Source: an uncultured virus (IMG/VR IMGVR_UViG_3300038321_000417) (taxonomy: Duplodnaviria > Heunggongvirae > Uroviricota > Caudoviricetes). Taken from it: 64,000 bases of DNA. Position 1 is the first letter of the stretch. Every line of letters starts with the position of its first letter. Made by a program: the position numbers and the translations under genes. Shown here piece by piece: positions 16,445 through 39,671 of this stretch. The stretch is taken from IMG/VR virus record IMGVR_UViG_3300038321_000417. The stretch is one strand, 5' to 3'. The notes below the pieces were generated by a model. It searched no databases. It worked only from the letters and a program-made list of their open reading frames with translations, and was not told the origin of the DNA.

Positions 16445-18118
16445 TTATTTCCCTACCCTCATTTCTAAGAAATTATTGAAGTAGTCAGCACCAAAATCAT
16501 TTAATACTTCCTCAAAAACGCTTTGGTTGTAATCTGAAATCATCCATTTATCTTGAACCTTTTGTAATTTCATGCGACTACCTATATTATATGCTTTGTC
16601 GTTAGAAATTATGACTTCTCTTAACCGCACTTCACATGTCAGACTTGTAGCGTAAATCCATTCTTCTACTAAAGTATATTTCTTGTCAACTTCGGATACA
16701 GATTGTAACGTCTTACGAATTTTTTCCGTTTCAACTAAACTTTTATCTTTATCAATGAAAGATACTATGCCTGAGTCGCCAACCATAGCAGTTGACAAGT
16801 CCAATAAAAATTGCTCAATGTCTTTTTTCGTTTCAGTATTGTCTGCGCCAGAAATAAGTTCAAATTCTTCTAACAAGTATAAGTTTTCTTTTGTTTGAAA
16901 CAAAGATGGCTCTTTCTTTATTACTACCTTTAAAGGCTCAATGTCCACTAATACAAATCCACCTGTTCGCCATTTAATAGTTAGTATATCCTCTTGACCG
17001 TAAACTCCATACCCTATTTTTTTATCTTTAGATTTGTCTTTTACTTCTGATACGGTTGTGACCACTAGAGTGTCTCCATCTCTACTGTAAAACTCTTTTA
17101 TGGTCGATGTAGTTAATTTATATATGTCGTTAAACATAGAGTCTAGATATGGCTCATACCTACCCGATTCTGCCATTAACTTATATAATCCAATATAATT
17201 CCTCGTGTTTAATGCCTTGTAAAAACTCTCTACAAAATTAGACAAATTAATCTTTGTGTTATCCGTAAACAACTCTGTATTTCTTAATGCTGTTTTAATC
17301 TCTCCACCGCTATACTCTATAAGATATGCCGATTCTAGTGCTAAATCCAATGTCATTGGAGATAATGCAAATATATACCTAAACTTCAAGTAGGCAGCGC
17401 TATTATCAACTTGTTCAATATTCCTTTTAGAATAGTTTATACCTAATACCCCTCTTTCTACTTGTTTTACTTCATCTTGATATGAGTATATAGGTGTTTC
17501 GTCTGTGTACACTCCCCAAGCTTTATCGCTCCCCTTACCTGTTTTTAATAAAATATCAGACACATATCTTTCTAAACGTAAACGCTTTTTTAAACTCTCT
17601 GTTGGGTCGCCTTTTACAATGTCAGGTACTCCTGAATTAGCTTTTAAAACACTTGAAGCTGTATAAGTTACGTCTACAACATAATGCTCTGAATCCCTAT
17701 CTACTCCCACTATGTCAATTTCCTTTAGCTCATACACATACTTGCCGAAATAGTCCATGTAATGAAGTATATACTTTAATGTACCATCTGTAATAAAACT
17801 ATCCGTCACTTCGCCTTTAACTAATGCCATGTTTATTTTATTAACCCTGTCTGTTAGCTTCATTTCTTCGGAGCTTTTTGCAGGTTCTAAGTTATCGTAT
17901 ATGTAATACCCCTCTGTGTCCATTATCGTCTTTATTCTATCCCCTATATCCTCTATTCCTGCCGTAACCCAAGCGTTAGCGTCATTTGAAGCTAAATGTA
18001 CCCCCAACGGAACAGAATCTTTTAGAGCATCCTCTACACCCTTGTTAGAACACCCTGTAGATAATAACACAACTAAACCGAATATAGCTAAAAGTCCTTT
18101 TGTCTTCTTTATGTACAT
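16445..18118 (-). CDS. Large lipoprotein of the transfer cluster
   Basis: Lipobox LLSTGC after basic/hydrophobic N-terminus; repeated helix + beta-hairpin segments possibly NTF2-like. Confidence 0.75.
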   Translation of the reverse strand: MYIKKTKGLLAIFGLVVLLSTGCSNKGVEDALKDSVPLGVHLASNDANAWVTAGIEDIGDRIKTIMDTEGYYIYDNLEPAKSSEEMKLTDRVNKINMALVKGEVTDSFITDGTLKYILHYMDYFGKYVYELKEIDIVGVDRDSEHYVVDVTYTASSVLKANSGVPDIVKGDPTESLKKRLRLERYVSDILLKTGKGSDKAWGVYTDETPIYSYQDEVKQVERGVLGINYSKRNIEQVDNSAAYLKFRYIFALSPMTLDLALESAYLIEYSGGEIKTALRNTELFTDNTKINLSNFVESFYKALNTRNYIGLYKLMAESGRYEPYLDSMFNDIYKLTTSTIKEFYSRDGDTLVVTTVSEVKDKSKDKKIGYGVYGQEDILTIKWRTGGFVLVDIEPLKVVIKKEPSLFQTKENLYLLEEFELISGADNTETKKDIEQFLLDLSTAMVGDSGIVSFIDKDKSLVETEKIRKTLQSVSEVDKKYTLVEEWIYATSLTCEVRLREVIISNDKAYNIGSRMKLQKVQDKWMISDYNQSVFEEVLNDFGADYFNNFLEMRVGK

Positions 18119-18828
18119 AAATAATCCTCTCCCATCTTAACATTGTAATACCGTATTACTAAAAAGTCGTCTACTGCTTTGTTTATTTCCTTTAGGGTAT
18201 AAATTTGTAAAGCTTCTTTTAATTTTACCTCTCCACCATTTTTTGAAACCCAGTCCTCTATAGGTGTGTCAGCCCCTTTAATTATATTGACTTCTTGAGA
18301 TATATTGTTTGGTTCTGCTTTCTCTTTATATACTTCTTTTACAAGCTTAACATCAGGCATACCTTTATTTTCTTTTATTATGTTCTCTTTTTTATTGATG
18401 TCTGCAACAGGATCAACCGAAATCATTTTTACTGTCTTAATTGGCTGCCTGTGAATTTTCTCTTTAATAGGCTGTTCTACTACAGGTTTTACGTTAGTCT
18501 TCAGTTTATCAGGTATTCCAAATATGTTCTCGAACCCCTCAATGTCCTCAAAATCTTCATCTGAATCATCATCATATTCAATGTCCTCAAATTCCTCATT
18601 TATATTGTCGTCTCCATACTCTATGCCGTTAAAATTTGTGCAGGTAGTCTCGTAAGTTTCTTTAATGTCAAATTCCTTTACGTCCATGTCTTCCTCAACA
18701 ACACTGTTTACTTTCTCTGTATTACCTTTTTCCTCTTTATGTGAAATAGGACTATACTTTTTTAAAATATAGTCCCCGATAACTTTTTTAAATGTACTTA
18801 TAGGAATATCTATTATTTCCATTGGCAC
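18109..18828 (-). CDS. Acidic hypothetical protein, possible C-terminal wHTH
   Basis: EFEDIEYDDDSDEDFEDIE tract; compact C-terminal domain; overlaps neighbour. Confidence 0.65.
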   Translation of the reverse strand: MPMEIIDIPISTFKKVIGDYILKKYSPISHKEEKGNTEKVNSVVEEDMDVKEFDIKETYETTCTNFNGIEYGDDNINEEFEDIEYDDDSDEDFEDIEGFENIFGIPDKLKTNVKPVVEQPIKEKIHRQPIKTVKMISVDPVADINKKENIIKENKGMPDVKLVKEVYKEKAEPNNISQEVNIIKGADTPIEDWVSKNGGEVKLKEALQIYTLKEINKAVDDFLVIRYYNVKMGEDYLCT

Positions 18829-18838
18829 ACTTCCTTGT

Positions 18839-20959
18839 TTAATACTTATCAGGCATGTATTCGTAAACTCTACGTAAAGCAGGGCTAGATTCTATTTCAT
18901 ACCCTTTTGACATCCATAGCCTACGTATAAAGTCAAATACCTTTTTGTTGTTCTCGTTAGAATCGGTGATTACTCCTGATTTTATAAACATTGGTTCTTC
19001 TGAACCTATTGTCATAGCCATGTCACCTTTTCTACTCAAAACATAATCAAACTTATTTGTTGTTAAATCTAATGTTGACTTAATATGATCCGTGTTACCC
19101 ATTACTGATGCTCTGAAAGGTATTACTGACTTTATTGTTTTATTCAAAAATTGATGTTTAGCAACGTGAGGAATTAAAACTGTTCTAATACCTACGTTAG
19201 GCAGCTTCGTCACAAGTATTCTTAACAGCTTGTCGAACCTCTCTTTTTCTTCTTTACCCATAGTCTCTGCAACAGTGACAACTTCATCTATAAATACATA
19301 TATTATAGGTAATTTTACTTCTGGATGCCTGTTCCTTAAATCCCAAATACTTGTCTCCTTGTATTTACCTATTATGTCCTGTCTTCTTTTACCCTCTTGC
19401 TCTACCACCACTTCTAATATGCTGTTAAACTCTTTTGAATTCCCACAAAACGCTATATTATGAGGTATATTAAAATTTAAAAAGTCCGATGTTTTATCTT
19501 TAGGATCAAGTATTATGTATTGCAAATCCTCTGGTGAAGTAAACATACTTAATTGAGTTAGTATGTTTAAGCCTACCCATGTCTTTCCACTTCGAGGCAT
19601 ACCCGCTATTAAAAGTGATTCTAAGTTTTTCAAATCCCGATATATCGGTTCTCCCTCTCCATCTATCCCCAATATAACTGGAAACGTGTTATTCGGATCG
19701 GTGAAAAATTCTCTTCCCTTTGGTGTACCTAAAAAGTCCCCTAAACTAACAAAGAAGTTTTCATTTCCAAATACTTTAATGTCGTAAAAATCTCCCCAAA
19801 GTTCAACTACCGCATTAACGTTATCCTTTTTGTTTATTTTAAAATAAGGTTCGAGTTCTCTTGCAATAGCATCTGTCTTATTCAACCCTTTAATTCTACG
19901 CATCCTTGCCCTTATATACATTTTTGTCTTAAAAGCTTCTACAAGGTAAGTGTTTTCTGCCTCTTCCACTTCTTTTGTTGACACTGCATTTATCGCCTTT
20001 GTACAACTTGTGTCAATAAAATAAAACTCATCAGTACCCTCTCTAAGTGGTTCTTCAGTTTCAAAATCGGGGGTATATTTAGGTAAAATTTTTAAGTACT
20101 TATTAAGTAAATATTCCCTATCGTAAAACCTATTAGTGTCGATACTGTCTAATTCACTTTCTACATTATTGCTGTTTACTGTTGTGTCAAAATTCGGAGG
20201 CACATATAAATCGTTTAAGTCAGGCACACCATTAAGCTCGAAGTTATCGTCAAAAAACGACGTGTCAATTACTGAATCATCTAAGGAATCGAAATCTTCT
20301 CCGGAATCATCAAACCCCAAAGAGTCTATTTCATTTGCAAAGCTGTTGTTAACCGGTTTTTCCCCAGGATCATTAGCTATATTTGAGGGATTCTTATTAA
20401 CATAATCTGCTGTAAACCCAAATACCAGTAGTAAAAATCCTGCACTAATAAAGTTAAATATAAACCAACTCAATGTGCGAATAAAAAGTATTTTCTTTAC
20501 CCCAAAAATCATTAAAAGTATAAAAATTACTGCGGCTACAGTCTGACTTACTAAAATACGTGAGATATACTTACCCCATGTTTTAGAATCTGTATTTTTA
20601 CAAAACTCAAATAGTTTCTTAACGCCACTCCATACTACTTTGAATACCTCTTTTACAACTCTAAAAAACCTATCCTCTGGATTTTCAACAGGCTTTGTCT
20701 GTGCAAATTGATTGTTAAATATACTTGTCGAATTTTCCGCACCCAAGTCCATTCCACCTAATCCACCTGTATTTGAATTAGCTCCCAAACCTAAAAAGTT
20801 ATCTAAGTCCGCTTCACCAACTAAAAAGTCCTCAAAATTAATACTGTCGTCTTCCATGCCCTCTTCATATTGGGGTGGATTCTTTATTTTGTTATGCTTT
20901 AATTTAGCATTCTCTAAATCATATGATCCTATGTTTTTTTGTAACTTATTAAAGTCCAC
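18839..20959 (-). CDS. Membrane-anchored FtsK/SpoIIIE-family ATPase
   Basis: 2 TM segments, PVILGIDGEG, Walker A AGMPRSGKT, ILDPK, Walker B YVFIDE, RKGD. Confidence 0.85.
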   Translation of the reverse strand: MDFNKLQKNIGSYDLENAKLKHNKIKNPPQYEEGMEDDSINFEDFLVGEADLDNFLGLGANSNTGGLGGMDLGAENSTSIFNNQFAQTKPVENPEDRFFRVVKEVFKVVWSGVKKLFEFCKNTDSKTWGKYISRILVSQTVAAVIFILLMIFGVKKILFIRTLSWFIFNFISAGFLLLVFGFTADYVNKNPSNIANDPGEKPVNNSFANEIDSLGFDDSGEDFDSLDDSVIDTSFFDDNFELNGVPDLNDLYVPPNFDTTVNSNNVESELDSIDTNRFYDREYLLNKYLKILPKYTPDFETEEPLREGTDEFYFIDTSCTKAINAVSTKEVEEAENTYLVEAFKTKMYIRARMRRIKGLNKTDAIARELEPYFKINKKDNVNAVVELWGDFYDIKVFGNENFFVSLGDFLGTPKGREFFTDPNNTFPVILGIDGEGEPIYRDLKNLESLLIAGMPRSGKTWVGLNILTQLSMFTSPEDLQYIILDPKDKTSDFLNFNIPHNIAFCGNSKEFNSILEVVVEQEGKRRQDIIGKYKETSIWDLRNRHPEVKLPIIYVFIDEVVTVAETMGKEEKERFDKLLRILVTKLPNVGIRTVLIPHVAKHQFLNKTIKSVIPFRASVMGNTDHIKSTLDLTTNKFDYVLSRKGDMAMTIGSEEPMFIKSGVITDSNENNKKVFDFIRRLWMSKGYEIESSPALRRVYEYMPDKY

Positions 20960-20974
20960 AACTAATACCCCTTT

Positions 20975-23017
20975 CTATTTCTTGACTACGCCTGTTTTGA
21001 ATAGTTTTGAGTTGACAAGTTCGTCTGGTAAAAATACTTTTCCTACTGAAAAATCTCGACTATCTAAACACGTAACAAACGCATATCTATAGCTATCTGA
21101 ATCTGTTCCTGCTTTATTATCAAGTATAGTTGATGTTGCTATTTTATCTAACTCTGGTTTTAAATGAGGTACTGAGAGTCTCGCCATTAAATCTTGTCTT
21201 ACTGTTGCATCCCTTATCGCACCTATCATAAAGCTAGATATGTTTCCGAATATTTTTCTATGATCATCCCGATCAGAATATAGTAAACTTGCAACACTAT
21301 TAGTAACGATTATTATTATGTCACCTAATTTCCTACCGCCAGTAACGTTTGTTCCTAATATTGCCGCTGAACCTGTAAAATCTCCCCACCTTTGATATTC
21401 TTCCCAAAGTTTAAAATTATACTTACCTAACACGTACTTACAGTATATTGATCTTTGGTAAGATAAAATAGCAGCACTAAGTTGCATTATTTTCATCTGT
21501 ACAGGATCAATGGAATCCTCTGTGATATTCTTCATATTGAATGAAATAATTACTAGTTTTGCGTCATTTATTTCATCAAGCGATATAGCATCATTAAAAA
21601 AGTCGGCACGTAACCCATCTTCCGCTAAATAAGTGTTTAACTTTACACACATTTTACTACATACACGTTTAAAGTCCTCTGACGGAATATACTTCGCTAA
21701 TCCCTTAAATGCTCCAGTATGTATAGCATCTTCTAACACAGGTAGTATATCCTTTACCGAACAGTTTTTTGATCTTACCCATGTTTTAGGATTCTTCGAT
21801 ACCCCTTTTCTTCTGTACACTTCATTTATCGCTTCATCTAGTATGTCATCTGCCCAATATTCTTCTGCGAATAATTTATCCCCTATTATGCTTTTATAAA
21901 AGAATGTTATGTACTCTATAGATTGAGTTCTTAACCCTGAATCAATGTCATCATCTCCCACTAAATCAGGTATAGGAAAAGGATCAATGTATAACCCTTT
22001 TCTCATATTAATAACCTTTACCATGTCCGGATTATCCGCCCCTATCCAATCCGCTAAAGGTGTGTATTCATCACCCTCTATGTCATTTATAGTCCCGTAA
22101 TGCCCTGTGCTTAATAACATTATAACCATGTTTTTTACGGCATAGGATTTACCCCCACCTGCTTCTGCTGTAACCAGAATTGTCTCCAAGTCTGTTTCTG
22201 ATCTTTTAAACTGTTTAAATATACTTTTTCCAGAATAGATATCCGTAACTAAGTATATTCCCGTATCTCCTACTTTACCGTGACTTAAACCCATAGTCTT
22301 AGCATAAAGAATGTCAGTGTATAGATTTTTACTTACTACTATTTTTTTATCATCTTCCTGTTTATAATTAAAAGGCATTGATGTTTTGATGTAATCTCCT
22401 AAGTCTTTTCCTATTCTTTCATAACTAAACCCGTATGACTTTAGTTGTTTCTCTAATTCAGCCAAACAGTTTTCATAGTTTACCATTCCTACAGGAGAGA
22501 TGTCCTCTGTAACCACGTTAAGCACATAAGATAGTTTTATTATATCCCTGTCATACTTCTTTTCAGCTAAATAAAGCTCCCCTAAACTCTCCCTTAACCA
22601 CTCAACTTCCTCACTATCGTCATAAGTGCTACTTAGATTATACACGTTAGCAGATTCTTCAACGTCTTCCTCTCTATTTTTCCAAGCATTTAACCTAAGT
22701 TGCATTAGTCTGCTACCCCAGTCCATATCATGTTTTGTAAAACTAGCTACTGTGTTTATACGTATGTAATCTTCTGCAACATATTCTAATGAGCTTCGTA
22801 TAACGTCAATAAGCCCATTTCTTACTGTACGCCCAAACCCACCGATTGCGTAAAATACAGATATGCTGTTATTCCCTTGAATAAAATCTTTACCCAATGA
22901 ATAACAACCCCTGTCAACACCACTTTGCAATAATATCTTACCTCGTATTGAACAAGCCAAAAAGTAATCATACATTTGTAAGTTTTCTTTAAACTTCTTA
23001 AAAATATTAAGTCTCAT
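20975..23017 (-). CDS. VirB4/TraE-like ATPase
   Basis: Walker A AEAGGGKSYAVK, DIEGDEY, IDPF, Walker B LWEEY, GRKLG: VirB4-family motif order. Confidence 0.8.
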   Translation of the reverse strand: MRLNIFKKFKENLQMYDYFLACSIRGKILLQSGVDRGCYSLGKDFIQGNNSISVFYAIGGFGRTVRNGLIDVIRSSLEYVAEDYIRINTVASFTKHDMDWGSRLMQLRLNAWKNREEDVEESANVYNLSSTYDDSEEVEWLRESLGELYLAEKKYDRDIIKLSYVLNVVTEDISPVGMVNYENCLAELEKQLKSYGFSYERIGKDLGDYIKTSMPFNYKQEDDKKIVVSKNLYTDILYAKTMGLSHGKVGDTGIYLVTDIYSGKSIFKQFKRSETDLETILVTAEAGGGKSYAVKNMVIMLLSTGHYGTINDIEGDEYTPLADWIGADNPDMVKVINMRKGLYIDPFPIPDLVGDDDIDSGLRTQSIEYITFFYKSIIGDKLFAEEYWADDILDEAINEVYRRKGVSKNPKTWVRSKNCSVKDILPVLEDAIHTGAFKGLAKYIPSEDFKRVCSKMCVKLNTYLAEDGLRADFFNDAISLDEINDAKLVIISFNMKNITEDSIDPVQMKIMQLSAAILSYQRSIYCKYVLGKYNFKLWEEYQRWGDFTGSAAILGTNVTGGRKLGDIIIIVTNSVASLLYSDRDDHRKIFGNISSFMIGAIRDATVRQDLMARLSVPHLKPELDKIATSTILDNKAGTDSDSYRYAFVTCLDSRDFSVGKVFLPDELVNSKLFKTGVVKK

Positions 23018-24334
23018 TTACGATACCTGCCTAGCCCATTGTCTAAATATACTTGCCATCCTGTCCTTATATAAATTAAACTGTAATGATGGTCTTTTTC
23101 CACTATACCCCTCTATATAAGGTATGGTGTACTTGCCTATTTTATCTACACTCGATATAACCTTGTCTTGACTTAGATTAAATGTACTGACATCTTTAGA
23201 TGAACTAACTGCTGTTAGGTATAAGTTTTTCTTACCCTGTAAATCCAGTATTGGATTTGTAGCTTTAAATCTATCTAACACAATTATACTTGTCAATCCC
23301 CTATTTAGAAGGTTATCCCATACACCCGCATTTTGTTCGGTGATATTAACTATAGGTAACTTTTCGAGGTCTTTTAAGTCTGATAAATCCTCTACAGATT
23401 TAACTACTGCTGTAGAGTTACCTTTTTCTATCCTTGTTTCATCTAAACCGTATATGTGCTTTCCAATTACGAATAGGTAAGAACCATTTTTGTTTGAATC
23501 CGCTAGAAATAATCTAAAGTTAAATAACATACTCCCCAAGTAGTTGCAATGACTGTACTCTCTTACATACAATACTTTTGTTTTACATTCTTTTACTACA
23601 TACGTGGACGGAAATAAAAACAACTTAGCATTTTCTTTATATAGCTCATTGTCAAAATTAAGTCTTTCTACAGTGCCATTAAGGTCTTCAACTTCCTTTT
23701 CTAACAAAGCAGCTTTACCTCTTTCAATAATGCTTTCTTTGTTGGCTTCATTAAGATTATTAGATAACATCTTAATTAGAGTCCTTGCTCTATCCCCAGT
23801 ATGGGTCTCGTTATTAAGCCTAGTCAAATACTCTACTAATTCTGTAAATACATATCTAGCTTTCCTACAATTAATTTTGTCTGTAAGACTAAGCTCCAAT
23901 AAACCTAACTCCCCCTCACAAAATTTTAATATGTTATCAATAGCACTCTTGACGCTTTCAACTTGTGAAGCCGCCGATTCTAACGCCTTATCATAATTTA
24001 TGCTTGTTGTGCTCTCTGCCATGTCTTTTATAAATTCAATATCATTATCTATATCAATGTAATTACCTTTGTAAAGAGTGCATATCTTGAAACCTAACCT
24101 CTTTAAATCTGAATATTCTTCGTTATCAGTTACCAAATATATATTATTTACCTGTGAGATAACTTCCAGTAATGCGTAAACATCAATTTTTTCCTGTCCT
24201 GTAGAATCGGCAATATGACAAATTATGTCATCGATCTCTGTACCCTCTAAAAGTATATACTTAATCCTTGTAAAATCGTTAACGTTTATACAATTGTGAA
24301 TACTAACAGGATAATCTGTAACCAATAAATCCAT
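23018..24334 (-). CDS. Hypothetical protein with central coiled coil
   Basis: 438 aa, GGGGAG RBS, abuts VirB4-like gene. Confidence 0.75.
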   Translation of the reverse strand: MDLLVTDYPVSIHNCINVNDFTRIKYILLEGTEIDDIICHIADSTGQEKIDVYALLEVISQVNNIYLVTDNEEYSDLKRLGFKICTLYKGNYIDIDNDIEFIKDMAESTTSINYDKALESAASQVESVKSAIDNILKFCEGELGLLELSLTDKINCRKARYVFTELVEYLTRLNNETHTGDRARTLIKMLSNNLNEANKESIIERGKAALLEKEVEDLNGTVERLNFDNELYKENAKLFLFPSTYVVKECKTKVLYVREYSHCNYLGSMLFNFRLFLADSNKNGSYLFVIGKHIYGLDETRIEKGNSTAVVKSVEDLSDLKDLEKLPIVNITEQNAGVWDNLLNRGLTSIIVLDRFKATNPILDLQGKKNLYLTAVSSSKDVSTFNLSQDKVISSVDKIGKYTIPYIEGYSGKRPSLQFNLYKDRMASIFRQWARQVS

Positions 24335-24358
24335 ACTTATCTCCCCTTTATTTCTAGT

Positions 24359-30292: not shown

Positions 30293-33200
30293 TTAACTGT
30301 CACTTTTAACAGTTTCATCTTTTTTCTCTATTTTATCTATCTTGTTCGCTAATGCAGACCTGTGCTTGCTTTTCTTAATGCTTGTCATTTTACGGGTTTG
30401 GGTTTTTGTCTGCATTTGTGCTATGGAATCATCCATATTATCTAAGTAATCGCCATAAGTATCTTCTACTTCTTTTTCCTTATTCTTTAATTTTTTAAGT
30501 ACCGCTTTTTCACGCCTCGTTTGTCTACTACCCGATTCACTCCCCTCATAACTATCTTTAACAAGCCAATCTTTAGTCTTATTTCTTATTTGTTGACCTA
30601 TCTTATCGGCATATGTCATAGCCATCATACCTGTGCTTACAACAACCACCTTTGCCTCTTTAAATAGTTTTACAATAGTGCGGAATAAAACCACTACATA
30701 CAAGCTATTTATTAGAATAAACCATAGAAATACTGCTATAGGGCTATTTAATACAACAGTCCCTGAATTCCCTATAATGTTTGAATAAGCATCACTCACA
30801 AGTAATGAATTTAAAAATGCTTGTGCGATAGAAGCTATAAAGTATGTTATAATAGGCGTAAACAATCCTTTTTGTACTGCCTTTAGCATAGTGTCAATAT
30901 TCTTTACCGAACTTAATCCATAGTATAGTATCAAAATGTATGCCATTACGAATACAAGTATTATGTAAATATATCTTAAAGTGGACACTATCCATATTGC
31001 AAGTATGTCACAAAGAAATAAAAATACCCCCGATAACCATGATGAGTTGTCTATTATTCTCTCATACACCAAGCTGTCTCCAAATAGTGTCTCTCCCGTA
31101 CTTGTGACAAGCATCATTTTCATTATTGTGTCATAATTAAACCCTCTTAAATCATAAGTTTTAGGATACAGGTCAGCATTGTCTCGAAATACAAACGATC
31201 TAGAGAATTCATTGTTAAAGTTAAATGTTGCCTGTAGTGCCGCCATTGATAACAAAGATTCATCCGAAAATCCGTAATTATTAATTAAGCCTCTAAAGTC
31301 AATGTATGTCTTTTCAAGCACTTTCAATATCTTTGTCTCAACTAATGTCAAAGACATATTCTCATACCCCTGCTCTATTTGCTGTGCTTCACTAAACACC
31401 ATAGGTCTGTAGCTTTCATATTCTGTATAATCAAAGGAATTAATAAGTTTATACTTACTGTTTATTGCCAACACGTAATCATTTTTCCCGTAATCCGATC
31501 TCTCTATGGCAGATGCCCAAACCGAAAAGTAAGACCAGTAATCTATGTCCTCTAATGGTGCTGTCTTATCGTTTATCTTACGTAATGCTAACGTGTTGTA
31601 GGCTTTCATATTAGGTAAAAGATTCTTAAACAGGTTTTCCATATCTAAAAAGTCTTTTATTCTATCATACCCTCTACTGTTTCTGCTTGTAACCTTAAAA
31701 ATATCATCCTCGATTAAGAGTCTTGAAAATCCAGAATTTATTTCTGAGCTACCCTCTAACGTTGTAGTAGGTGTATCAAACATGTAATCTCTTAACACAT
31801 TATAGAAATAATAATAAACCCCCTCTGTATTTATTAGAAACTGCTCGTTATAGTTCCTGTGATTATCAATCACCACATTCTTTGTGTCAAGTCCCATTAA
31901 ATCCATATCTGTAGAAGTGAATTTTTCTTGTTCTGGCATGCCTAAACCCTTATTTAACAAGAACGAGTCGTAATGCACAGGCTTTGCTTTGCTAAACTTA
32001 GGAAAGTAATAATATTTCCCCTCTTGTTCTAGCTTTTCTCTTTCTTTTGCAATATCGAAATATGTGTAAATAACCTCTCCATCTTGATCTATAACTTGCT
32101 TAACTCTAGTGTTTAAAGGAATGTCATAAAGGTTATAGGCTTCATTTGATGTACGTGCTACATCATACAACGATCTATACAAATAATAGCTTGTACTGTC
32201 TGGATAAAACTCCTGCTGCAAAAATCCTGACGAAATCCACTTGAATATATTCAAATTAACCTGGCTTCCACCACCAAGGTTCATTGAGTAAAGATTTTCA
32301 TAAGGGTTAATTTTCTTCTCTGCGTTCCATTTTAAAAGTACCCCTCGATTACCCTTTGCACTCCTTATAGATTGGATAGAGTTAACAACACTTATGTTAT
32401 TATTTTGGTTCTCAATATCAAGCAAATATTGTTGGTGTTGTGTTAAAGCCCACATTCCAAGCTTATTACTGAATATTCCCTCTGATACTTGATTGCTTGT
32501 CTCAACTGCAAAGTCTATAAGGTACGGCGGTATTATTAAAACCAATGAAACTATTAACAAAAACACCGCCAATTCCTTGAATGTCTTAGCCCCTATTATG
32601 AAGAATATTACCCCTACTATCAAAAATGCTATGAAAAATATAATGTACCATATTAAGTAATTGTTTATCATTCCCGATATAAAAGGTGTCTGCTTTAATG
32701 TTGGTGTTGTAACAAAATTATTTAATCCACTATACCCTGTCTGTACCCTATATCCAGATGATGTGATGTCCGCTTTGTCTGCATTTGCTAACTTATAATG
32801 AGTGTCAATTATCCACTTGTTAGCTGTTGAATTTAATTGTTTCACCCTATATGTAGCATCATCAGGATCAAGTAAACCTCTTATATTTTTCAGTAAGTCC
32901 TCTTTCTGCTTTTCGTCGCTTTCTTCCAAGTATCTCTCTGTCATTAATTCGGCTATCAATGAATTGTATTCTGCCATTCCTATAAGTTCGTCAACCAATT
33001 CACTGTTAAAACCTCTCCAATCTTGATACCCCTCTGTGTGCCCAAAATATAGCTTTAAGTATGTGTAATAAATTGTCACAATAAAATTATCTCCTAGAGT
33101 GTTAATATCTCCATCTGCGATTGTAAACTCTCTAAACAAATCTCTTTCATTTAGGGTGTACATGTTATACATGTATTCATTCATTATCCTTCTTATCACA

Positions 33201-34711
33201 ATATTTAGCATGTTCTGACCTAAGATATTTTTAGCCTTGTCCCATAAACCTTTACCCTCTGTACTTGAAGTGCTTATGTCTAACGCACCTTTTAACAGGT
33301 TAATTCCAAACTCTGTAGAGTCCACGCTAGTATTTAACATTTTAATGTCTTTATCGCTTTCTGGTAAGGAGATTACATTTAATATGTCAGTGGATTTAAA
33401 CTTTAATACCCCTTTATTCATTGCACTTATTTTAGCGTTTATCTTTTCACCTAATTCGGACTTTATGTTAAATAATCCAAGTATTCCTGTGGCACGATAC
33501 TCGGATGTCTCTACTGCTGAATTGTCTAAATATATACTTAATTCTATATCTGATTGATCCTCTTTGTGTTCTTCTTCAAGCTCCGTTAATATCTTTTTTG
33601 CCTCTTCTCTGCCTGCTTGTAAGGTTTCCTCAGATATTGTCAAGCCGCCTAATGCTGAAATAACCCTTTGCTTATATGAAGTGTAATTATTATAGGCTAT
33701 AACGTTAAAATTCTTTGTAGTAAGTTTGTTCTTAAATAACATGCTTAAAGACGGTAGACCAAAATCTCTCTCGAAGTCCTTTAATAAAAATCCAGAGGTT
33801 TGTGTTATTCCTGACTGTCCAATAGCTGTATCCTCTACTCTATCTGCTAAAAACCCCAGGTTATCTTTATTTTCATTTTCTGTAAAATATAAGTAACTCC
33901 TGTACTCTTGTTTAACTGTACTTCCCTTAAATTGTGCAGCCCTATCCCAATTTAATACCCTCTCTATGTTCATTACTGAATTCGGATGCCCTACATTGAA
34001 AGCATAGTTAGCAAGCGTGTAGTCATTGATAAATAGAAATTTATCTCCATTTTCCGATATTATGTAGGGATTTAATACTGCGGGTATGACTACTCTGTTA
34101 TCTTCTAATAGAATATTCCCAAATGCGTCTAAACATATAGGTGTATCTAAAATTCCCTCGTATGTGATTGAGGATAATACCCCTTTGCCTTTTGCTAATG
34201 AAATAAGTAATCCTATATTTGAAATGTCATTATTTGAATTAAATACTGTAAGTTCTTTATTTCCTGTATTAAGTACAATCTCAACATTGTCCTCTAATAA
34301 AGTGCCAAATGTAGCCACTATACCGCTACCCTTTTGTACTAAATATTTCCTCTCTCCTGCAATTTGAAATTGTAGCACCTTTTTGAATAACTTGTCTAAG
34401 CTATCTTTATAGTCCGGTTGACCAAAGTATAAGTATTCACTCTTTTCACCTGTGAATATACGATACCCTTGTTTGTCGCCAGAAGCAAAAGGCTCTAAAT
34501 AATTGCTTAAAAAGAACCCCCATACAAATAACTCCTGATCATCTATGCTGTTTATGTCCCCCAATCCTCTGTTCCCTCTATATAGGTCAAACATTGCATA
34601 TTCTGTAGATACCTGTGCATTTACATGTATCGGCGGAATGAATACTACCCCCATTGCCACTGCTATAAGTATAACACATAACCCTCTTTTAACTCTCTGT
34701 AACTTTCGCAT
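30293..34711 (-). CDS. Very large polytopic membrane protein (VirB6-like candidate)
   Basis: Signal peptide, large extracytoplasmic domains, two TM clusters, basic tail. Confidence 0.75.
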   Translation of the reverse strand: MRKLQRVKRGLCVILIAVAMGVVFIPPIHVNAQVSTEYAMFDLYRGNRGLGDINSIDDQELFVWGFFLSNYLEPFASGDKQGYRIFTGEKSEYLYFGQPDYKDSLDKLFKKVLQFQIAGERKYLVQKGSGIVATFGTLLEDNVEIVLNTGNKELTVFNSNNDISNIGLLISLAKGKGVLSSITYEGILDTPICLDAFGNILLEDNRVVIPAVLNPYIISENGDKFLFINDYTLANYAFNVGHPNSVMNIERVLNWDRAAQFKGSTVKQEYRSYLYFTENENKDNLGFLADRVEDTAIGQSGITQTSGFLLKDFERDFGLPSLSMLFKNKLTTKNFNVIAYNNYTSYKQRVISALGGLTISEETLQAGREEAKKILTELEEEHKEDQSDIELSIYLDNSAVETSEYRATGILGLFNIKSELGEKINAKISAMNKGVLKFKSTDILNVISLPESDKDIKMLNTSVDSTEFGINLLKGALDISTSSTEGKGLWDKAKNILGQNMLNIVIRRIMNEYMYNMYTLNERDLFREFTIADGDINTLGDNFIVTIYYTYLKLYFGHTEGYQDWRGFNSELVDELIGMAEYNSLIAELMTERYLEESDEKQKEDLLKNIRGLLDPDDATYRVKQLNSTANKWIIDTHYKLANADKADITSSGYRVQTGYSGLNNFVTTPTLKQTPFISGMINNYLIWYIIFFIAFLIVGVIFFIIGAKTFKELAVFLLIVSLVLIIPPYLIDFAVETSNQVSEGIFSNKLGMWALTQHQQYLLDIENQNNNISVVNSIQSIRSAKGNRGVLLKWNAEKKINPYENLYSMNLGGGSQVNLNIFKWISSGFLQQEFYPDSTSYYLYRSLYDVARTSNEAYNLYDIPLNTRVKQVIDQDGEVIYTYFDIAKEREKLEQEGKYYYFPKFSKAKPVHYDSFLLNKGLGMPEQEKFTSTDMDLMGLDTKNVVIDNHRNYNEQFLINTEGVYYYFYNVLRDYMFDTPTTTLEGSSEINSGFSRLLIEDDIFKVTSRNSRGYDRIKDFLDMENLFKNLLPNMKAYNTLALRKINDKTAPLEDIDYWSYFSVWASAIERSDYGKNDYVLAINSKYKLINSFDYTEYESYRPMVFSEAQQIEQGYENMSLTLVETKILKVLEKTYIDFRGLINNYGFSDESLLSMAALQATFNFNNEFSRSFVFRDNADLYPKTYDLRGFNYDTIMKMMLVTSTGETLFGDSLVYERIIDNSSWLSGVFLFLCDILAIWIVSTLRYIYIILVFVMAYILILYYGLSSVKNIDTMLKAVQKGLFTPIITYFIASIAQAFLNSLLVSDAYSNIIGNSGTVVLNSPIAVFLWFILINSLYVVVLFRTIVKLFKEAKVVVVSTGMMAMTYADKIGQQIRNKTKDWLVKDSYEGSESGSRQTRREKAVLKKLKNKEKEVEDTYGDYLDNMDDSIAQMQTKTQTRKMTSIKKSKHRSALANKIDKIEKKDETVKSDS

Positions 34712-34716
34712 TTCTT

Positions 34717-36774
34717 CTAGCCCCCAACTATGTTAAAATATAAAGTAATCAAATTTTCTACAACTAATTTGTATAATCCCCCTGTTACACATAACATACC
34801 AATGATCGAACCTAAAATAATTATTGTTAATACCTTTTTACCTGTCTTGTTTTGTTTTTTATTTCCAGTAATATCTCCAATACTATTATAGTCCATTTTA
34901 ATGTTCTTAAAGCTTATTATAGGAAGTAACTCTACCCCCATTATTCCACCACTCCTGTCAAACGTGTACGCTATGAATAATATGGATATATACAGGAATA
35001 TGAACGCTCCCAATACTATTAAACTAACTCTTAACCCTTTTAACTTATTGTTAATATTTATTCTCTCAAGTTCTGAACGGATACCCTCTATTTTTGTTAA
35101 CTGTCCATCTGTAAGTTCAAATGTATTTACTGTGTATTCTCCTGATAGTATCTTGCCTATCGACACTACGTCTACTTTATACTTCTCACTTATTTCAGCA
35201 GATATGTTTGAGTTTAAATACTCCCGTAATCCACTTTCTCCATAACAGTCCTTATTTAATACTATGCAGTTGCCTACTCCCGTTTTGTTCTTTATGTTTA
35301 TTATGCTGTTTCCGTCTGGATCGGTAGAGGTATAATACCCTAACTTTGTAGAATCTATATCTGCTAATTCGGCATTGTCGTACTTTATTAGTGAATTATC
35401 TGTAAGATTAATATCTCCTAAATTAATTAATCTTCCTGTGTGGTACAGCTCATCATTATATGTGATACATTCCATAAGAGTACTAGAGATTATTTCAGGT
35501 TGAGTATTCCCCACTAACTTAAATGTCTTATAGTTACCATAATGCTGTGAATTAAAGCTCTTTGTGTCACCACTGTCTGTTACGTGTATTTCTTCTGTAA
35601 ATAGGTTTATTAACCCTACGTCCTCGTATGAAATTGGGTAATACCCCTCACTGTTCTTTATTGAGCCGCTTACTTGCTTAAATGGGTATTCAACTCTTAT
35701 GTACTCTTTTTCACTTCTTTGTATATACTTAGGTCTACTTGTTTCACCCTCTGTGTTTTTGAAAACTCCTGCAAATTCTTCATTTACATTTAATCTGTTG
35801 CCTGTGAAATTGATTGCTCTCGATGTGCTACCGTCTATTAGCTTTATTACTTCTCCTGTAGTTAAACTGGAATTTAACATTGTCCTTATATTGTTCTTTA
35901 ATAGCACTCCTGTACCGAATGTATCATACACTAAAGTCTTGTTGTCTTGACACTTTAGGTCTTTTATGGTAACACTTATATCTGAAAATAAATTAAAAAT
36001 ATGCTGCGCTAAACACTCCGCACCTTGCGTTATTAATGCAGAAGTTGCTGTGTCTATAACATAGTACGTGTCTGATCGGGATTCAACTCTGTAGAAAGGC
36101 TTGTATAGGCTTGCTCCAATTAACTCTTTTTCAACTCTATTTAATGTCTTGTATTTTTCTGTCTGAAATAATTGCAAACCTGATGGGTACATTGATTTAT
36201 CGAATTGGGATAGGTCTATTTTAAAGGTCTTTTCATAGGTCAAATAATCCATTATTCTAGTGCTCAGGATTGTCGGTAAACCTTTATAACTTAGAAATGT
36301 GACAACATTATTGTTGAAACTGATAGTGGATTTATCTCTGTTTAGATTGTATAGACTTCTTGTTGTGTCACAAAGTTGCTTGAATGTATCTATTTCATAG
36401 TTAACTATTTCTGAAAAATCTGCACTGTTCAAATGTTTAATTCTTGTTAATGAATTGCTGTATGTATACTCCGTTCCAGTACCTACCAAATATGGGGGTA
36501 TAGATACACCTTTATGATAACCACTTGCCTCTCCCGTAATTGTGACTAATCGATCTAAAGTGAAATATTCTTTTAAATAATCATCATAAGGAAATTCAGC
36601 ATTATTTTCTAAAGTAGTGATTTTTTCATACTGTAACTTAGATACTTCCTTTTCTGTAACTATACTTAACTCATAAGTGTCTATTTTCTTTTCTGCAACA
36701 TAAGAATTAAACCCTGTAACCGCTACACCAAACACTATAAAACATACTATTACACTAAATATAAACTTCTTCAC
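34717..36774 (-). CDS. Secreted protein with C-terminal TM pair
   Basis: Signal peptide; C-terminal hydrophobic helices. Confidence 0.75.
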   Translation of the reverse strand: MKKFIFSVIVCFIVFGVAVTGFNSYVAEKKIDTYELSIVTEKEVSKLQYEKITTLENNAEFPYDDYLKEYFTLDRLVTITGEASGYHKGVSIPPYLVGTGTEYTYSNSLTRIKHLNSADFSEIVNYEIDTFKQLCDTTRSLYNLNRDKSTISFNNNVVTFLSYKGLPTILSTRIMDYLTYEKTFKIDLSQFDKSMYPSGLQLFQTEKYKTLNRVEKELIGASLYKPFYRVESRSDTYYVIDTATSALITQGAECLAQHIFNLFSDISVTIKDLKCQDNKTLVYDTFGTGVLLKNNIRTMLNSSLTTGEVIKLIDGSTSRAINFTGNRLNVNEEFAGVFKNTEGETSRPKYIQRSEKEYIRVEYPFKQVSGSIKNSEGYYPISYEDVGLINLFTEEIHVTDSGDTKSFNSQHYGNYKTFKLVGNTQPEIISSTLMECITYNDELYHTGRLINLGDINLTDNSLIKYDNAELADIDSTKLGYYTSTDPDGNSIINIKNKTGVGNCIVLNKDCYGESGLREYLNSNISAEISEKYKVDVVSIGKILSGEYTVNTFELTDGQLTKIEGIRSELERININNKLKGLRVSLIVLGAFIFLYISILFIAYTFDRSGGIMGVELLPIISFKNIKMDYNSIGDITGNKKQNKTGKKVLTIIILGSIIGMLCVTGGLYKLVVENLITLYFNIVGG

Positions 36775-36796
36775 TCTAAGTCCCCCTATAATTTAA

Positions 36797-36832
36797 AAAA
36801 GTCTTTACCTACTGTTAGCAGGTAAAGACTTT
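36797..36832 (-). terminator. Rho-independent terminator
   Basis: AAAGTCTTTACCT...AGGTAAAGACTTT. Confidence 0.8.
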
Positions 36833-36846
36833 ATATTTAATACGTA

Positions 36847-37680
36847 TTAACCTATTCCTATTAGTCCAAAAAGACCCTCTAACAAGGAAGATACTGCTGT
36901 TATTGTAAAGGACATTAATTCTCCAGATACTAACAAGAGTATACATATCACGAAAAACACCACAAATACAATTCTGTTTTTTAAGTAATCTACTACTGCT
37001 GCCACTTTAGAGCTACCCTCTCTGTTTCCATATGAGCTAACCGATTCTAATGATCTTTTAACTGCGTTAAATGCTTCTACCGATACCCATATTGGTTTTT
37101 TACGTTTCCCAGTGGAATCCCCTGTCGCCGATCCCTGTAATGGTGGAAATGTAATAAAAGCTAAGTCTAAAGCCAACACTATTCCAAACCCTATTAAAGA
37201 CCCGTATGTGATTATCGCAACTATTATTGCAACTATAGGCTCAACCCCCGACATAACACGCCTTGCACCCACAAAGTCTGCGGATGATCCGGTTAATAAA
37301 TACCTTACCACAGTAGCGTTATCGGGAAAAGCTTCAATTATAGCTGAATTTAAGTCCCACATTTCATTTGTTGTAAGGGATTCCTGCGGAGAATTTTCTG
37401 CCCTTTTTAACGCATGTAAAGTTCTCTCGATATAAGGTCTTGTATCTTTTGCAAGAATGTTTTGAGAGCTAAAATCCATGTGTATAGTGGCATACCCTTG
37501 ATAATCTACAAATAGTCCACCTGTCCCTAGTTTCCCATCTACCTCTGACGGTACATATATTGCATCTGCCGGAAGTCTGTCAAATGCAACAGGATTTGCT
37601 GCAAATATAGGTATGCTCAAACATAGAAGAAATAATATTGTGAATATTAATACGTAATACGGTTTAACTTTTCTATTCAT
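36847..37680 (-). CDS. Pilin-like membrane protein (paralog A)
   Basis: Signal peptide (IFA/A), two TM, motif D-x2-F-x3-P...WVSxEA...YLKNR. Confidence 0.65.
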   Translation of the reverse strand: MNRKVKPYYVLIFTILFLLCLSIPIFAANPVAFDRLPADAIYVPSEVDGKLGTGGLFVDYQGYATIHMDFSSQNILAKDTRPYIERTLHALKRAENSPQESLTTNEMWDLNSAIIEAFPDNATVVRYLLTGSSADFVGARRVMSGVEPIVAIIVAIITYGSLIGFGIVLALDLAFITFPPLQGSATGDSTGKRKKPIWVSVEAFNAVKRSLESVSSYGNREGSSKVAAVVDYLKNRIVFVVFFVICILLLVSGELMSFTITAVSSLLEGLFGLIGIG

Positions 37681-37699
37681 GTTACATCTCTGCCTTTCA

Positions 37700-38320: not shown

Positions 38321-38341
38321 TGTTATCTCTCCTTACCTTTG

Positions 38342-38644: not shown

Positions 38645-38645
38645 T

Positions 38646-38942
38646 TTAAAAGTCTCCTATCTCAATCATTATCGGTCTTACCATAAACTTTGTCTGGTCT
38701 ATTTGATTTATATTGTAATACTTTGAAAGCTCTGATCGTAAGGTTAAAAAGTCATTTACCCTATCTTGTCTAATGTCTATTACCACAGCAGTAACATTAT
38801 CTATGAATGCTCCTTTTAACACTTCCATTGACTGTTTTCTTAAAACTTTTAACAAGTAAGATCGGTTAAGACTTTCCTGTAATAGCTTATTTGCTAGTTT
38901 TTTTGATTGCTTTTTTTCTATTATAGCCTTAAAAACTTCCAT
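38646..38942 (-). CDS. Hypothetical protein
   Basis: GAGGT RBS, in operon. Confidence 0.7.
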   Translation of the reverse strand: MEVFKAIIEKKQSKKLANKLLQESLNRSYLLKVLRKQSMEVLKGAFIDNVTAVVIDIRQDRVNDFLTLRSELSKYYNINQIDQTKFMVRPIMIEIGDF

Positions 38943-38954
38943 AATAACCTCTTG

Positions 38955-39671
38955 TTAAAACATGCTGCTTAGGTTTATGTTTGAAACCCAGTTAAACAGC
39001 ATAAAACCTAATTTGTAAAATAATTGTGAAGTAAGTATAAGAGGCACGAACACAATAAGAATTAATTCAAATGCACGTTTTTTGAAATATGTAGCCATCT
39101 TATTTTTTGTTGCGGGGGTTGTGGCACTACCAAATCCAGTATTATTAGTTGCAGGTGAACACTCACGTATAGTATCTAATGCTGATTCCGATACCCATTG
39201 TTTACCTAAAACTGAATTTGAAGTTGTTTGTTGATTGTCATACGGTGCTTGTTGTCCAAAACCACCATAAGGTGATCCGCCTCTATACCCCCCAAAACCA
39301 CCAAAACCACCAACTGTAGACGTACCTCTATTGCCTACATGAGGTGCAAGATATTGTCTTGTAAAAGGTAGAGTTAAATACACGATGTCTACACAAGTTA
39401 ATACCCCTGCTGCTAACCACACAATAAGTAAAATTGCGCCTTTTGCCTTTGCTACCCAACCAGAAACTTTGCCAAATTTAGATTGTGCAAAAGCATAATC
39501 AGGTGCGCTGGAAGTTACTATATCATCCAATGCGTCTAAAGCTTCTTCATTTTTCTGTTGTGTTACAGCGTCTTTCAAATCAACGCCATCACTCGATGCA
39601 AACGCAAATGTCACACCCATTGCAAAAATTAATGATATAATTGCTAAAACGGAAAGAATTCGCTTAACCAT
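38955..39671 (-). CDS. Pilin-like membrane protein (paralog B, Gly-rich loop)
   Basis: Signal peptide (AFA/S), two TM, D-x2-Y-x3-P...WVSxSA...YFKKR, GGFGGFGGY loop. Confidence 0.65.
   Translation of the reverse strand: MVKRILSVLAIISLIFAMGVTFAFASSDGVDLKDAVTQQKNEEALDALDDIVTSSAPDYAFAQSKFGKVSGWVAKAKGAILLIVWLAAGVLTCVDIVYLTLPFTRQYLAPHVGNRGTSTVGGFGGFGGYRGGSPYGGFGQQAPYDNQQTTSNSVLGKQWVSESALDTIRECSPATNNTGFGSATTPATKNKMATYFKKRAFELILIVFVPLILTSQLFYKLGFMLFNWVSNINLSSMF

Follow-up and report, generated by a model that had tools for sequence, protein, structure and literature searches.

The DNA analysed here, hereafter the window, is a 64,000-nucleotide stretch from an uncultured virus (IMG/VR record IMGVR_UViG_3300038321_000417), and our subject is the gene cluster at 16445-39671. 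We identified 17 minus-strand open reading frames (ORFs) of 98-1472 aa in this cluster, tightly packed in the same orientation, with intergenic gaps of -56 to +72 nt and a coding fraction of 99% (Table 1). The window as a whole has ~34% G+C and a monotonic GC skew, and its minus strand carries all substantial ORFs except one. Pfam matches within the cluster are to FtsK_SpoIIIE, VanY, YdjM, HU (Bac_DNA_binding) and, weakly, the ParA-type AAA_31; for nine of the 17 ORFs, searches of Pfam, PHROGs and NCBIfam gave no match under the thresholds applied. A first-pass annotation had described about 16 co-oriented, abutting genes here, among them a VirB4-like ATPase, an FtsK-like ATPase, a ParA-like protein, a membrane-anchored peptidoglycan hydrolase, a 1472-aa polytopic protein, YdjM and HU-like domains, lipoproteins and a pilin-like pair. 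It proposed that they form a highly divergent machine related to conjugation (type IV secretion system, T4SS), possibly of an undescribed class. The inventory holds, with one gene more, and so does the divergence, as standard profiles barely see the cluster. The novelty of the class did not survive comparison with plasmids.

When the 680-aa VirB4-like protein was searched by tblastn against 72,556 plasmids (PLSDB), 22 records matched; ten of them contain most of the query, and these represent the ~350-kb plasmid of Bacillus thuringiensis serovar israelensis. NC_018516 (pBTHD789-1), from this serovar, is pXO16 (PMC6199540). The pXO16 tip locus (from 'transfer of israelensis plasmid') is described as a 25-kb region of 16 coding sequences (CDSs), delimited in 2018 by bioinformatics and experiments, in which two ATPases and a cell-wall hydrolase (TipB) are needed for efficient transfer (PMC9673590). 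By the same account the relaxase and origin of transfer (oriT) of pXO16 remain unidentified, and the locus, of which a screen of 1,168 B. cereus-group plasmids revealed only its own copies, was called rather unique in this 2022 review (PMC9673590). Every CDS of pXO16 lies in one orientation, and a phage-like nature was once suspected; transfer is of single-stranded DNA, and its mechanism, like that of pCW3, has a distant relationship to T4SS (PMC6199540). The plasmid mobilises others that lack mob and oriT; it also transfers parts of the chromosome, up to 791 kb long, and does not itself integrate (PMC9673590, PMC6199540).

The gene order on NC_018516 is an AAA ATPase, CDSs of 254, 92 and 157 aa, a metal-dependent hydrolase and CDSs of 292, 269, 1834 and 710 aa, followed by CDSs of 200, 207, 445, 306, 412 and 645 aa, four small CDSs, an FtsK/SpoIIIE protein, a 422-aa CDS, SpoVG and a DEAD/DEAH helicase. 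This is the layout of the window read along its minus strand. By BLASTP, ten window ORFs from the cluster and its flanks pair with pXO16 CDSs in the same order, at 20-36% identity in local alignments: the clamp loader, the 238-aa protein, the HU-like and YdjM proteins, the 277-aa, 1472-aa and 328-aa proteins, the VirB4-like and FtsK-like ATPases and the SNF2 helicase. The VirB4-like protein is 31.7% identical to its counterpart at 94% coverage (tblastn E 1e-83, blastp 5e-94), the FtsK-like ATPase is 33% identical (3.7e-49), and the 1472-aa protein matches the 1834-aa pXO16 protein at 25% over 977 residues (4e-61). The clamp loader and the SNF2 helicase, each 33% identical to a pXO16 flank gene, occupy equivalent places. 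The 277-aa protein matches two pXO16 paralogues (4720-5598 and 5718-6527), and the 328-aa protein pairs with the 445-aa CDS (213259-214596). Iterated profiles pair the 438-aa protein with the 412-aa CDS (210899-212137) and extend the 238-aa protein to pXO16 2189-2953 (2e-62) and to the relatives G001-G003. Correspondence is positional only for the 92-aa CDS, at the place of the 98-aa ORF, and for the 200- and 207-aa CDSs, in the slot of the 136- and 147-aa proteins.

The two loci share the gene order from clamp loader to SNF2 helicase over ~23-25 kb of one strand, with no recognisable relaxase, as well as the order of the envelope genes (giant polytopic protein, YdjM, HU-like protein, two-helix paralogues, hairpin protein and the 412/438-aa protein). 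They differ in several parts. The hydrolase is weakly NlpC/P60 in pXO16 and VanY here, and the 306-aa pXO16 slot protein (212155-213075) lacks the ParA-like C-terminal domain that is complete in the window. Two 'pilin-like' paralogues and a 685-aa accessory protein in the window stand against three paralogues in pXO16, which also has four extra small CDSs between the genes for the VirB4-like and FtsK-like proteins. The host of pXO16 is Bacillus, whereas that of the window element is probably an anaerobe of Clostridia type. Function has been demonstrated experimentally for pXO16 alone; the window element is known here from its genes. Judged by sequence, the cluster is a distant gene-for-gene relative of the pXO16 tip locus, and the type of machine is known but poorly understood. 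With this collinearity the suggestion of an undescribed class falls, as does the view that several parts lie outside known sets: the HU-like protein, YdjM and the pilin-like paralogues are common to pXO16, and YdjM is also of the pCW3 TcpI type. We found no earlier descriptions of pXO16 relatives outside Bacillus in the literature searched.

The family is widespread. We identified 16 relatives of the VirB4-like protein in a word-indexed search, and an exhaustive profile search of 1.84 billion representatives returned 421 VirB4-like proteins at E<=1e-3 and 149 at E<=1e-30. Of 475 pattern matches in a metagenome collection, 114 were relatives; their contigs reach 410 kb and are labelled as fermentation, human-gut and others, and 80 of these 114 were kept. 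Two relatives were present among 286 pattern matches in a species-genome collection (in an Oscillospiraceae and a Clostridia metagenome-assembled genome, MAG), and three in IMG/VR. A copy of the window module at 98% identity is present on each of two of these contigs (155-156 kb). In a FastTree phylogeny of 86 VirB4-like proteins (Shimodaira-Hasegawa-like support only, midpoint root), the window groups with four relatives at 57-60% identity, inside a 39-row clade (support 100) with pXO16, the IMG/VR records and the Oscillospiraceae MAG.

Homologues detected by tblastn lie in identical order and strand at all metagenome loci with a full flank of ±10 kb (57/57). In these loci the FtsK-like protein was detected in 56, the SNF2 helicase in 54, and the 1472-aa, 328-aa and 438-aa proteins in 52, 37 and 13; after profile iteration over 88 sources, the 438-aa family was found in 82, the 328-aa family in 69 and the ParA-like (737-aa) family in 63. 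Gene order among homologues, the check that the first-pass annotation had put forward, is thus conserved both on pXO16 and in the metagenomes. Compared with L004, a 98.5%-identical copy, 12 ORFs have 171 synonymous versus 84 non-synonymous differing codons and no frame breaks; the cluster genes are under purifying selection. Because the order is kept in pXO16 and at 57/57 loci, and because of this synonymous excess, the cluster is more than a chance arrangement. The conserved core consists of the VirB4-like and FtsK-like ATPases, the giant polytopic protein, the 328-aa hairpin protein and the 438-aa MinD-fold protein. Most of the 88 sources stop short of the upstream part of the module, so that its upstream half was compared in the window, pXO16, the B. 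velezensis plasmid described below and the three IMG/VR records only; among these few sources YdjM, the HU-like protein and the two-helix paralogues also belong to the core. The hydrolase domain, the small lipoproteins and the 685-aa protein are swappable.

Table 1. Genes of the cluster and its two flanks, read along the minus strand, with the basis for each assignment.
Feature	Coordinates	Strand	Basis
DnaX-like clamp-loader ATPase, 439 aa, upstream flank	39739..41058	-	Pfam DNA_pol3_delta2 4.9e-27
238-aa membrane protein, paralogue A of 'pilin-like' family	38955..39671	-	Signal peptide, two hydrophobic helices, Gly-rich loop
98-aa ORF	38646..38942	-	No relatives in 88 sources; no match in Pfam, PHROGs or NCBIfam
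HU/IHF-like DNA-binding protein, 100 aa	38342..38644	-	Pfam Bac_DNA_binding 1.3e-5
YdjM-family membrane metal-dependent hydrolase, 206 aa	37700..38320	-	Pfam YdjM 9.6e-13
277-aa membrane protein, paralogue B of 'pilin-like' family	36847..37680	-	Profile, helices
685-aa variable accessory protein	34717..36774	-	Signal/anchor at the N-terminus, large outside domain, two helices at the C-terminus
1472-aa polytopic membrane protein, proposed channel/scaffold	30293..34711	-	~8 hydrophobic helices
639-aa membrane-anchored cell-wall hydrolase	28359..30278	-	C-terminal VanY/LAS metallopeptidase, Pfam VanY 1.7e-8
136-aa protein	27947..28357	-	N-terminal hydrophobic helix
147-aa probable lipoprotein	27507..27950	-	N-terminal Cys after hydrophobic stretch
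328-aa core membrane protein	26517..27503	-	Two-helix hairpin + alpha/beta domain
737-aa ParA/MinD-like protein	24359..26572	-	N-terminal alpha/beta domain, long acidic linker, ParA/MinD-like C-terminal domain
438-aa core cytoplasmic protein	23018..24334	-	N-terminal alpha/beta domain, coiled coil, C-terminal MinD/ParA-fold domain, no P-loop (predicted model)
680-aa VirB4-like ATPase	20975..23017	-	Family profile, Walker motifs
706-aa FtsK/SpoIIIE-type ATPase, proposed coupling protein/DNA pump (TcpA-like)	18839..20959	-	Pfam 3.1e-11
239-aa acidic element-specific protein	18109..18828	-	54 Asp + Glu; 3/88 sources
557-aa probable lipoprotein	16445..18118	-	N-terminus ...LLSTGC; 24/88 sources
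SNF2-family helicase, 530 aa, downstream flank	14851..16443	-	Pfam Helicase_C 9.2e-17, SNF2-rel_dom 2.7e-9

The VirB4-like protein of the window matches no Pfam family at E<=0.01 (DUF87 appears only at 0.029), and the curated VirB4 profiles (Pfam AAA_10 and CagE_TrbE_VirB, NCBIfam VirB4 models) do not recognise it; the NCBIfam mycoplasma model VirB4_plasma gives 2.6e-5, at 22 bits against a cut-off of 590. A family profile built from 64 sequences and compared with the PDB matches 4AG5, the C-terminal domain of Thermoanaerobacter VirB4, at E 1.9e-23 over chain residues 3-355 of 392. A coupling protein (2.8e-5), TrwK/VirB4 (5e-4) and HerA (0.011) follow. The assignment depends on family depth, because a profile of the 16 close members only reaches 4AG5 at E 0.0054. 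Pfam matches across the 64 members are all weak (DUF87 in 43, AAA_10 in 21 with a best value of 2.1e-7, P-loop_TraG in 18 and FtsK_SpoIIIE in 15). The Walker A motif AEAGGGKS is at residue 284, and G289, K290, D312 and E540 are invariant. On these profile matches the 680-aa protein is a VirB4-type ATPase, an assignment that is weak for the protein alone and solid for the family.

The FtsK-like ATPase combines two membrane helices with a single motor domain and carries both Walker motifs (A and B). Its family profile matches EccC (1e-18) and FtsK (9e-17) in the PDB, and the protein itself matches NCBIfam EssC/EccCb at 1.2e-7. Aligned by hhalign to TcpA of pCW3, it gives a probability of 98.2% (E 2.8e-14), and to TcpB 95%.

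Two further proteins of the cluster are related to the MinD/ParA fold. The 737-aa protein, which has a weak AAA_31 match (1.6e-4) and whose family profile matches MinD at 4.4e-8, has a Walker A motif without the lysine (GRAGQGVS in place of GxxGxGK[ST]; family consensus GSGVT). It contains 157 acidic residues and probably starts at an ATG 16 codons in. The proteins in this slot of G001, G003 and pXO16 (306 aa) seem by eye to retain the same type of N-terminal domain, although the profile is blind to them (E 0.077-2.6), and their ATPase-like part is degenerate or lost.

For the 438-aa protein, the family profile has no PDB sequence matches, and a protein Atlas search gave no usable match. A predicted model, with a mean predicted local distance difference test score (pLDDT) of 64 and values of 75-92 in the C-terminal part, comprises an N-terminal beta-alpha domain, a poorly predicted coiled coil and a C-terminal domain. 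In this model the C-terminal domain is a MinD/ParA-like fold without a P-loop, which is new relative to what is known of pXO16. The 438-aa and 737-aa families have no relation detectable by hhalign. Proteins of the TadZ/CpaE type combine an N-terminal receiver-like domain with an atypical ParA/MinD-type domain; no TadZ/CpaE entry is among the matches listed for the 438-aa model, and no TadZ entry among those listed for the 737-aa protein. Foldseek returned no match at E<=0.001 for either the 438-aa or the 328-aa model, and the 328-aa family profile has no PDB sequence matches. The 328-aa core protein weakly resembles the N-terminal domain of VirB4, which is a new observation.

The hydrolase has intact SxHxxGxAxD and ExxH zinc-ligand motifs in its VanY domain, behind an N-terminal membrane helix. 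Its N-terminal part is possibly SLT-like: the nearest Atlas clusters are SLT plus VanY proteins at 0.81-0.84, all below 0.9, a lead only, and a PDB sequence search with this part returned nothing. The same slot holds a VanY domain in the window, a weak NlpC/P60 domain in pXO16, CHAP in G003 and C40 plus glucosaminidase in the B. velezensis plasmid. Thus the slot appears conserved with its catalytic domain swapped, which adds to what is known of pXO16. The neighbouring 136-aa and 147-aa proteins, like the 239-aa protein, have only near-identical copies in the 88 sources, and the 147-aa protein matches NCBIfam TrsH/TraH weakly (1.4e-3). In line with the lipoproteins of the first-pass annotation, lipobox-like N-termini can be read in the ORFs at 16445 and 27507, on which the strict lipobox pattern did not fire.

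The pilin-like pair is real as a pair of paralogues. The profiles of the 238-aa and 277-aa proteins recruit each other, both have a signal peptide and two hydrophobic helices, and relative elements carry 3-5 copies each; 'pilin-like' is a label for topology only. Membership of the 685-aa protein as a third paralogue is not shown (E 0.096, negative score). This protein has no positional homologue in pXO16, G001 or G003, and its relatives sit elsewhere on other elements. HU-like counterparts are present in pXO16 (Bac_DNA_binding 5.6e-4), the B. velezensis plasmid and G001-G003. The YdjM gene lies 13-15 kb upstream of the VirB4-like gene in 3/3 IMG/VR relatives.

Among characterised systems, the Tcp locus of Clostridium perfringens pCW3 (NC_010937), which we take to be an MPF_FA-type Gram-positive T4SS, shares an FtsK-type coupling ATPase (TcpA), a VirB4-class ATPase, a peptidoglycan hydrolase and a large polytopic protein adjoining a YdjM-family protein (TcpH, TcpI). 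By its Pfam score (YdjM 3.5e-27, compared with 9.3e-14 for the pXO16 counterpart), TcpI, next to TcpH, is a YdjM protein, and the family is therefore not foreign to Gram-positive T4SS; hhalign aligns the window protein to TcpI with a probability of 50% (E 1.7e-4). The Tcp gene order differs from that of the window, and the annotation of the Tcp locus includes no ParA-fold pair, HU-like protein or paralogous two-helix proteins. TcpF matches Pfam AAA_10 at 5.9e-78, unlike the VirB4-like protein of the window. In 15 chosen hhalign pairs with single-sequence templates, which leave remote homology possible, we detected no similarity to TcpC, TcpD, TcpE, TcpG, TcpH or the relaxase TcpM. The 1472-aa protein aligns to TcpH with a probability of 1%, and its analogy to VirB6/TcpH is by architecture only.

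A 215-kb B. velezensis plasmid and a ~143-kb B. subtilis plasmid (NZ_CP076292, NZ_CP032858) share a block made up, in this order, of the hairpin protein, the ParA-like AAA ATPase, an unknown protein and the VirB4-like and FtsK-like proteins; on the former there are, in addition, genes for the clamp loader, for YdjM and for a giant protein of 2023 aa. They differ from the window in that their VirB4-like proteins fall in the other half of the tree, their FtsK-like proteins measure ~1,100 aa, the hydrolases are of the C40 plus glucosaminidase or the M23 type, and the 438-aa family was not detected. On the more distant B. subtilis plasmid (L097, 28025-29527) a protein with a ParB N-terminal domain is encoded directly after the 1,127-aa FtsK-like gene, and an M23 peptidase follows the VirB4-like gene.

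The 'Hodor' conjugative megaplasmids of the human gut are described in a preprint as having Rep_3, VirD4, a readily recognised VirB4, sortases, a proposed MOBH-like HD relaxase and 45-47% GC (PMC12934698). Likeness by description extends to very large Bacillota plasmids overlooked or filed as viruses, a hard-to-recognise VirB6, the lack of a classical relaxase and large surface-protein modules (PMC12934698). The present family is set apart, also by description, by its GC content (~34% in the window, 36% in G003), the absence of Rep_3, an ATPase of FtsK rather than VirD4 type and its own replisome genes.

We used G003, a gut relative, to examine the nature of the element. This 179,785-bp contig has ends that overlap by exactly 55 bp and is a complete circle, with 178/178 selected ORFs on one strand. 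Pfam matches among 126 of its ORFs include a family A DNA polymerase, DnaB, primase, ligase, UvrD, a ParM-like actin, AgI/II-type LPXTG adhesins, a signal peptidase and an HD protein, and it carries a ParB-like protein. Its 128 ORFs of >=120 aa have 0 PHROG matches to head/packaging, connector, tail or lysis families at E<=1e-5; those found are to replication and partition proteins. Similarly, the 53 window ORFs have 0 head, packaging, connector or lysis PHROG matches at the thresholds used, and the single tail-category match is that of the VanY domain of the hydrolase to a tape-measure family. Because G003 is a one-strand circle with replication and partition genes, and because neither it nor the window has virion genes, we interpret the family as giant plasmids that carry a replisome of their own, some of which are catalogued as viruses. 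The host is probably an anaerobic member of the Bacillota, of Clostridia type, because relatives lie in Oscillospiraceae and Clostridia MAGs.

Also encoded on G003 (L104:7588-8565) is an HD-domain protein that is 31% identical (E 1e-33) to NC_018516 74825-75685, and relatives are present on other 200-350-kb Bacillota plasmids (Virgibacillus, Latilactobacillus). This protein, which lies outside the window and matches the generic HD family only, is a possible candidate for the missing DNA-processing enzyme.

The clamp loader, which also matches NCBIfam dnaX_nterm at 1.2e-61 (below cut-off), has counterparts in G002, G003 and the B. velezensis plasmid. A series of 13 window ORFs, starting at 45176 and ending with the topoisomerase II A subunit, is collinear with G003. 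Phage-type topoisomerase II A and B subunits at 1380-5678 (PHROG 551/543; Pfam DNA_topoisoIV 4.8e-98), also collinear with G003, belong to the replication genes that the element itself carries. On the upstream side of the clamp loader, 41034-53927 is a secreted/surface block with genes for a 1458-aa protein with a signal peptide, a protein with an SLH domain and a 316-aa protein containing 110 acidic residues. This block may correspond to the aggregation region of pXO16; G003 has AgI/II-type LPXTG adhesins instead. Two paralogous BspA-type leucine-rich-repeat genes occupy 11570-13784, where the 98.5%-identical contig behind L004 has 195 bp instead, a recent insertion or deletion between copies of the element. 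An IS607-type unit at 57704-59455 comprises a serine recombinase with a MerR helix-turn-helix (58838-59455) adjoining a TnpB-like gene, which is split into two overlapping ORFs (58125-58841 and 57704-58168) and is thus probably frameshifted. Genes for a Fic-domain protein (56443-57369) and a PilZ-domain protein of the cyclic diguanylate-binding type (9007-9693) were also identified. A terminator-like hairpin lies beyond the SNF2 helicase at 13872-13855. A promoter scan gave no signal (77 found, 83.8 expected), the 64-kb window has no tRNAs, and a repeat search of it revealed no iteron-like or oriT-like arrays.

With a layout orthologous to the pXO16 tip locus, the cluster likely serves DNA transfer, as the mating-pore module of a giant, plasmid-like, one-strand element in an anaerobic host of the Bacillota. 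This reading builds on observed homology, gene order, domain content, purifying selection and family spread. By analogy with pXO16 genetics and Gram-positive T4SS, transfer itself and the part of each protein in it might be as follows. The membrane-anchored VanY-type hydrolase would open the peptidoglycan locally, and the envelope channel would be formed by the 1472-aa polytopic and 328-aa hairpin proteins together with the YdjM-like protein and the 238/277-aa paralogues. The VirB4-like ATPase would power assembly or transport. The membrane-anchored FtsK/TcpA-like ATPase, with its single motor, would be the coupling protein and load DNA into the channel, and the HU-like protein may bend or mark this DNA. 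The 737-aa and 438-aa MinD/ParA-fold proteins, which have no working P-loop, would serve as positioning or assembly scaffolds rather than motors.

Several results weigh against assigning transfer to the cluster. Identity to pXO16 is low enough that function may have diverged. The channel proteins aligned to VirB6/TcpH, TcpC, TcpD and TcpE give hhalign probabilities of 0.1-2.3%, and the VirB4-like protein aligned to TcpF just 11%, all with single-sequence templates. The hydrolase sequence of the window occurs only in near-identical copies, in 2/88 sources, and has no homology to that of pXO16. IMG/VR files the three relatives as viral (two as 'provirus', one with terminal repeats). Furthermore, Pfam and NCBIfam scans of the 53 window ORFs identified no relaxase, Rep or oriT, and on G003 there is no Rep and 0/126 ORFs match a MOB relaxase family in Pfam at E<=1e-5. 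The DNA-processing step is therefore unexplained, as in pXO16. The window is part of a ~155-kb element, so a relaxase could lie outside it.

The lack of a relaxase may instead be a property of the system. In this explanation the FtsK-like pump, aided by the replisome, the SNF2 helicase and the HU-like protein, would export any DNA that can be loaded, as a general donor rather than a nick-and-transfer T4SS. No relaxase family was identified in the window or in the complete relative, and transfer genes lie between replication genes (clamp loader, SNF2 helicase and topoisomerase II) in every relative. Reviews of pXO16 likewise report no identified relaxase or oriT together with the movement of mob/oriT-less plasmids and up to 791 kb of chromosome (PMC9673590, PMC6199540). 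However, single-stranded transfer 'distantly related to T4SS', as described for pXO16 (PMC6199540), normally implies a nickase, and a very divergent relaxase could escape Pfam. There is one candidate, the HD protein common to G003 and pXO16, and HD-type MOBH-like relaxases are proposed for other gut megaplasmids (PMC12934698). We regard export without relaxase or oriT as quite unlikely.

It is far less probable again that the element is a giant phage or phage-plasmid in which FtsK/HerA-type ATPases package or eject DNA rather than conjugate. The viral listing of the three IMG/VR relatives would fit, as would the PHROG matches of topoisomerase II, clamp loader and helicase, and a one-strand layout with many paralogues made the authors of the pXO16 study suspect a phage-like nature (PMC6199540). 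Yet the VirB4-like protein has no match in 50,697 phage records, the virion and lysis families are missing from the 53 window and 128 G003 ORFs as described above, and the 55-bp terminal repeat of G003 is the assembly overlap of a circle. For pXO16 itself, conjugative transfer and no plaques are reported (PMC9673590, PMC6199540).

Equally remote is the reading that the cluster, instead of transferring DNA, secretes proteins or assembles surface structures in a type VII-like or Tad-like manner, with an FtsK/EssC-like ATPase and a TadZ/CpaE-like positioning protein at its centre: the profile of this ATPase matches EccC as well as FtsK, NCBIfam places it with EssC/EccCb, surface-protein genes lie upstream, and the ParA/MinD-fold proteins with N-terminal alpha/beta domains presumably recall TadZ/CpaE, but the ATPase has one motor domain where EssC/EccC have two or three, a VirB4-type ATPase is a T4SS hallmark, and Pfam and NCBIfam at the thresholds used gave no WXG100, EssA, EssB, EsaA, Tad pilus ATPase, secretin or prepilin peptidase. 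Moreover, it was through loss of conjugation that the locus holding the pXO16 orthologues was defined, as the review states (PMC9673590).

The DNA-transfer module thus remains our preferred interpretation, and as a member of the pXO16 group the window contributes comparative data on a system that is mechanistically little understood. New elements are the predicted MinD/ParA-like fold without a P-loop in the 438-aa protein, the swapped hydrolase domains and the weak likeness of the 328-aa protein to the VirB4 N-terminal domain. Comparison with so distant a member separates the conserved core from the swappable parts, and provides a short list of knockouts for the tractable pXO16. More speculatively, tip-type machines could form a widespread, distinct branch of Gram-positive DNA transfer without classical relaxase or oriT. 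Such a machine would have an FtsK-type pump, a VirB4-type ATPase with a membrane-binding N-terminal module partly split off into the hairpin protein, and a scaffold pair of nucleotide-dead MinD/ParA-fold proteins, together a general DNA donor wired into the replisome of the element. We think this unlikely as a whole; if true, a relaxase-free general donor would explain how pXO16 moves mob/oriT-less plasmids and chromosomal DNA. The pXO16-type module is common on very large one-strand elements in fermenter, rumen-type and gut metagenomes. All 22 plasmids with a relative of the VirB4-like protein, including the experimentally conjugative pXO16, are labelled non-mobilizable by MOB-suite (PLSDB). 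Since tools for plasmid typing assign this class to the non-mobilizable plasmids, the gene flow that these elements mediate is probably underestimated.

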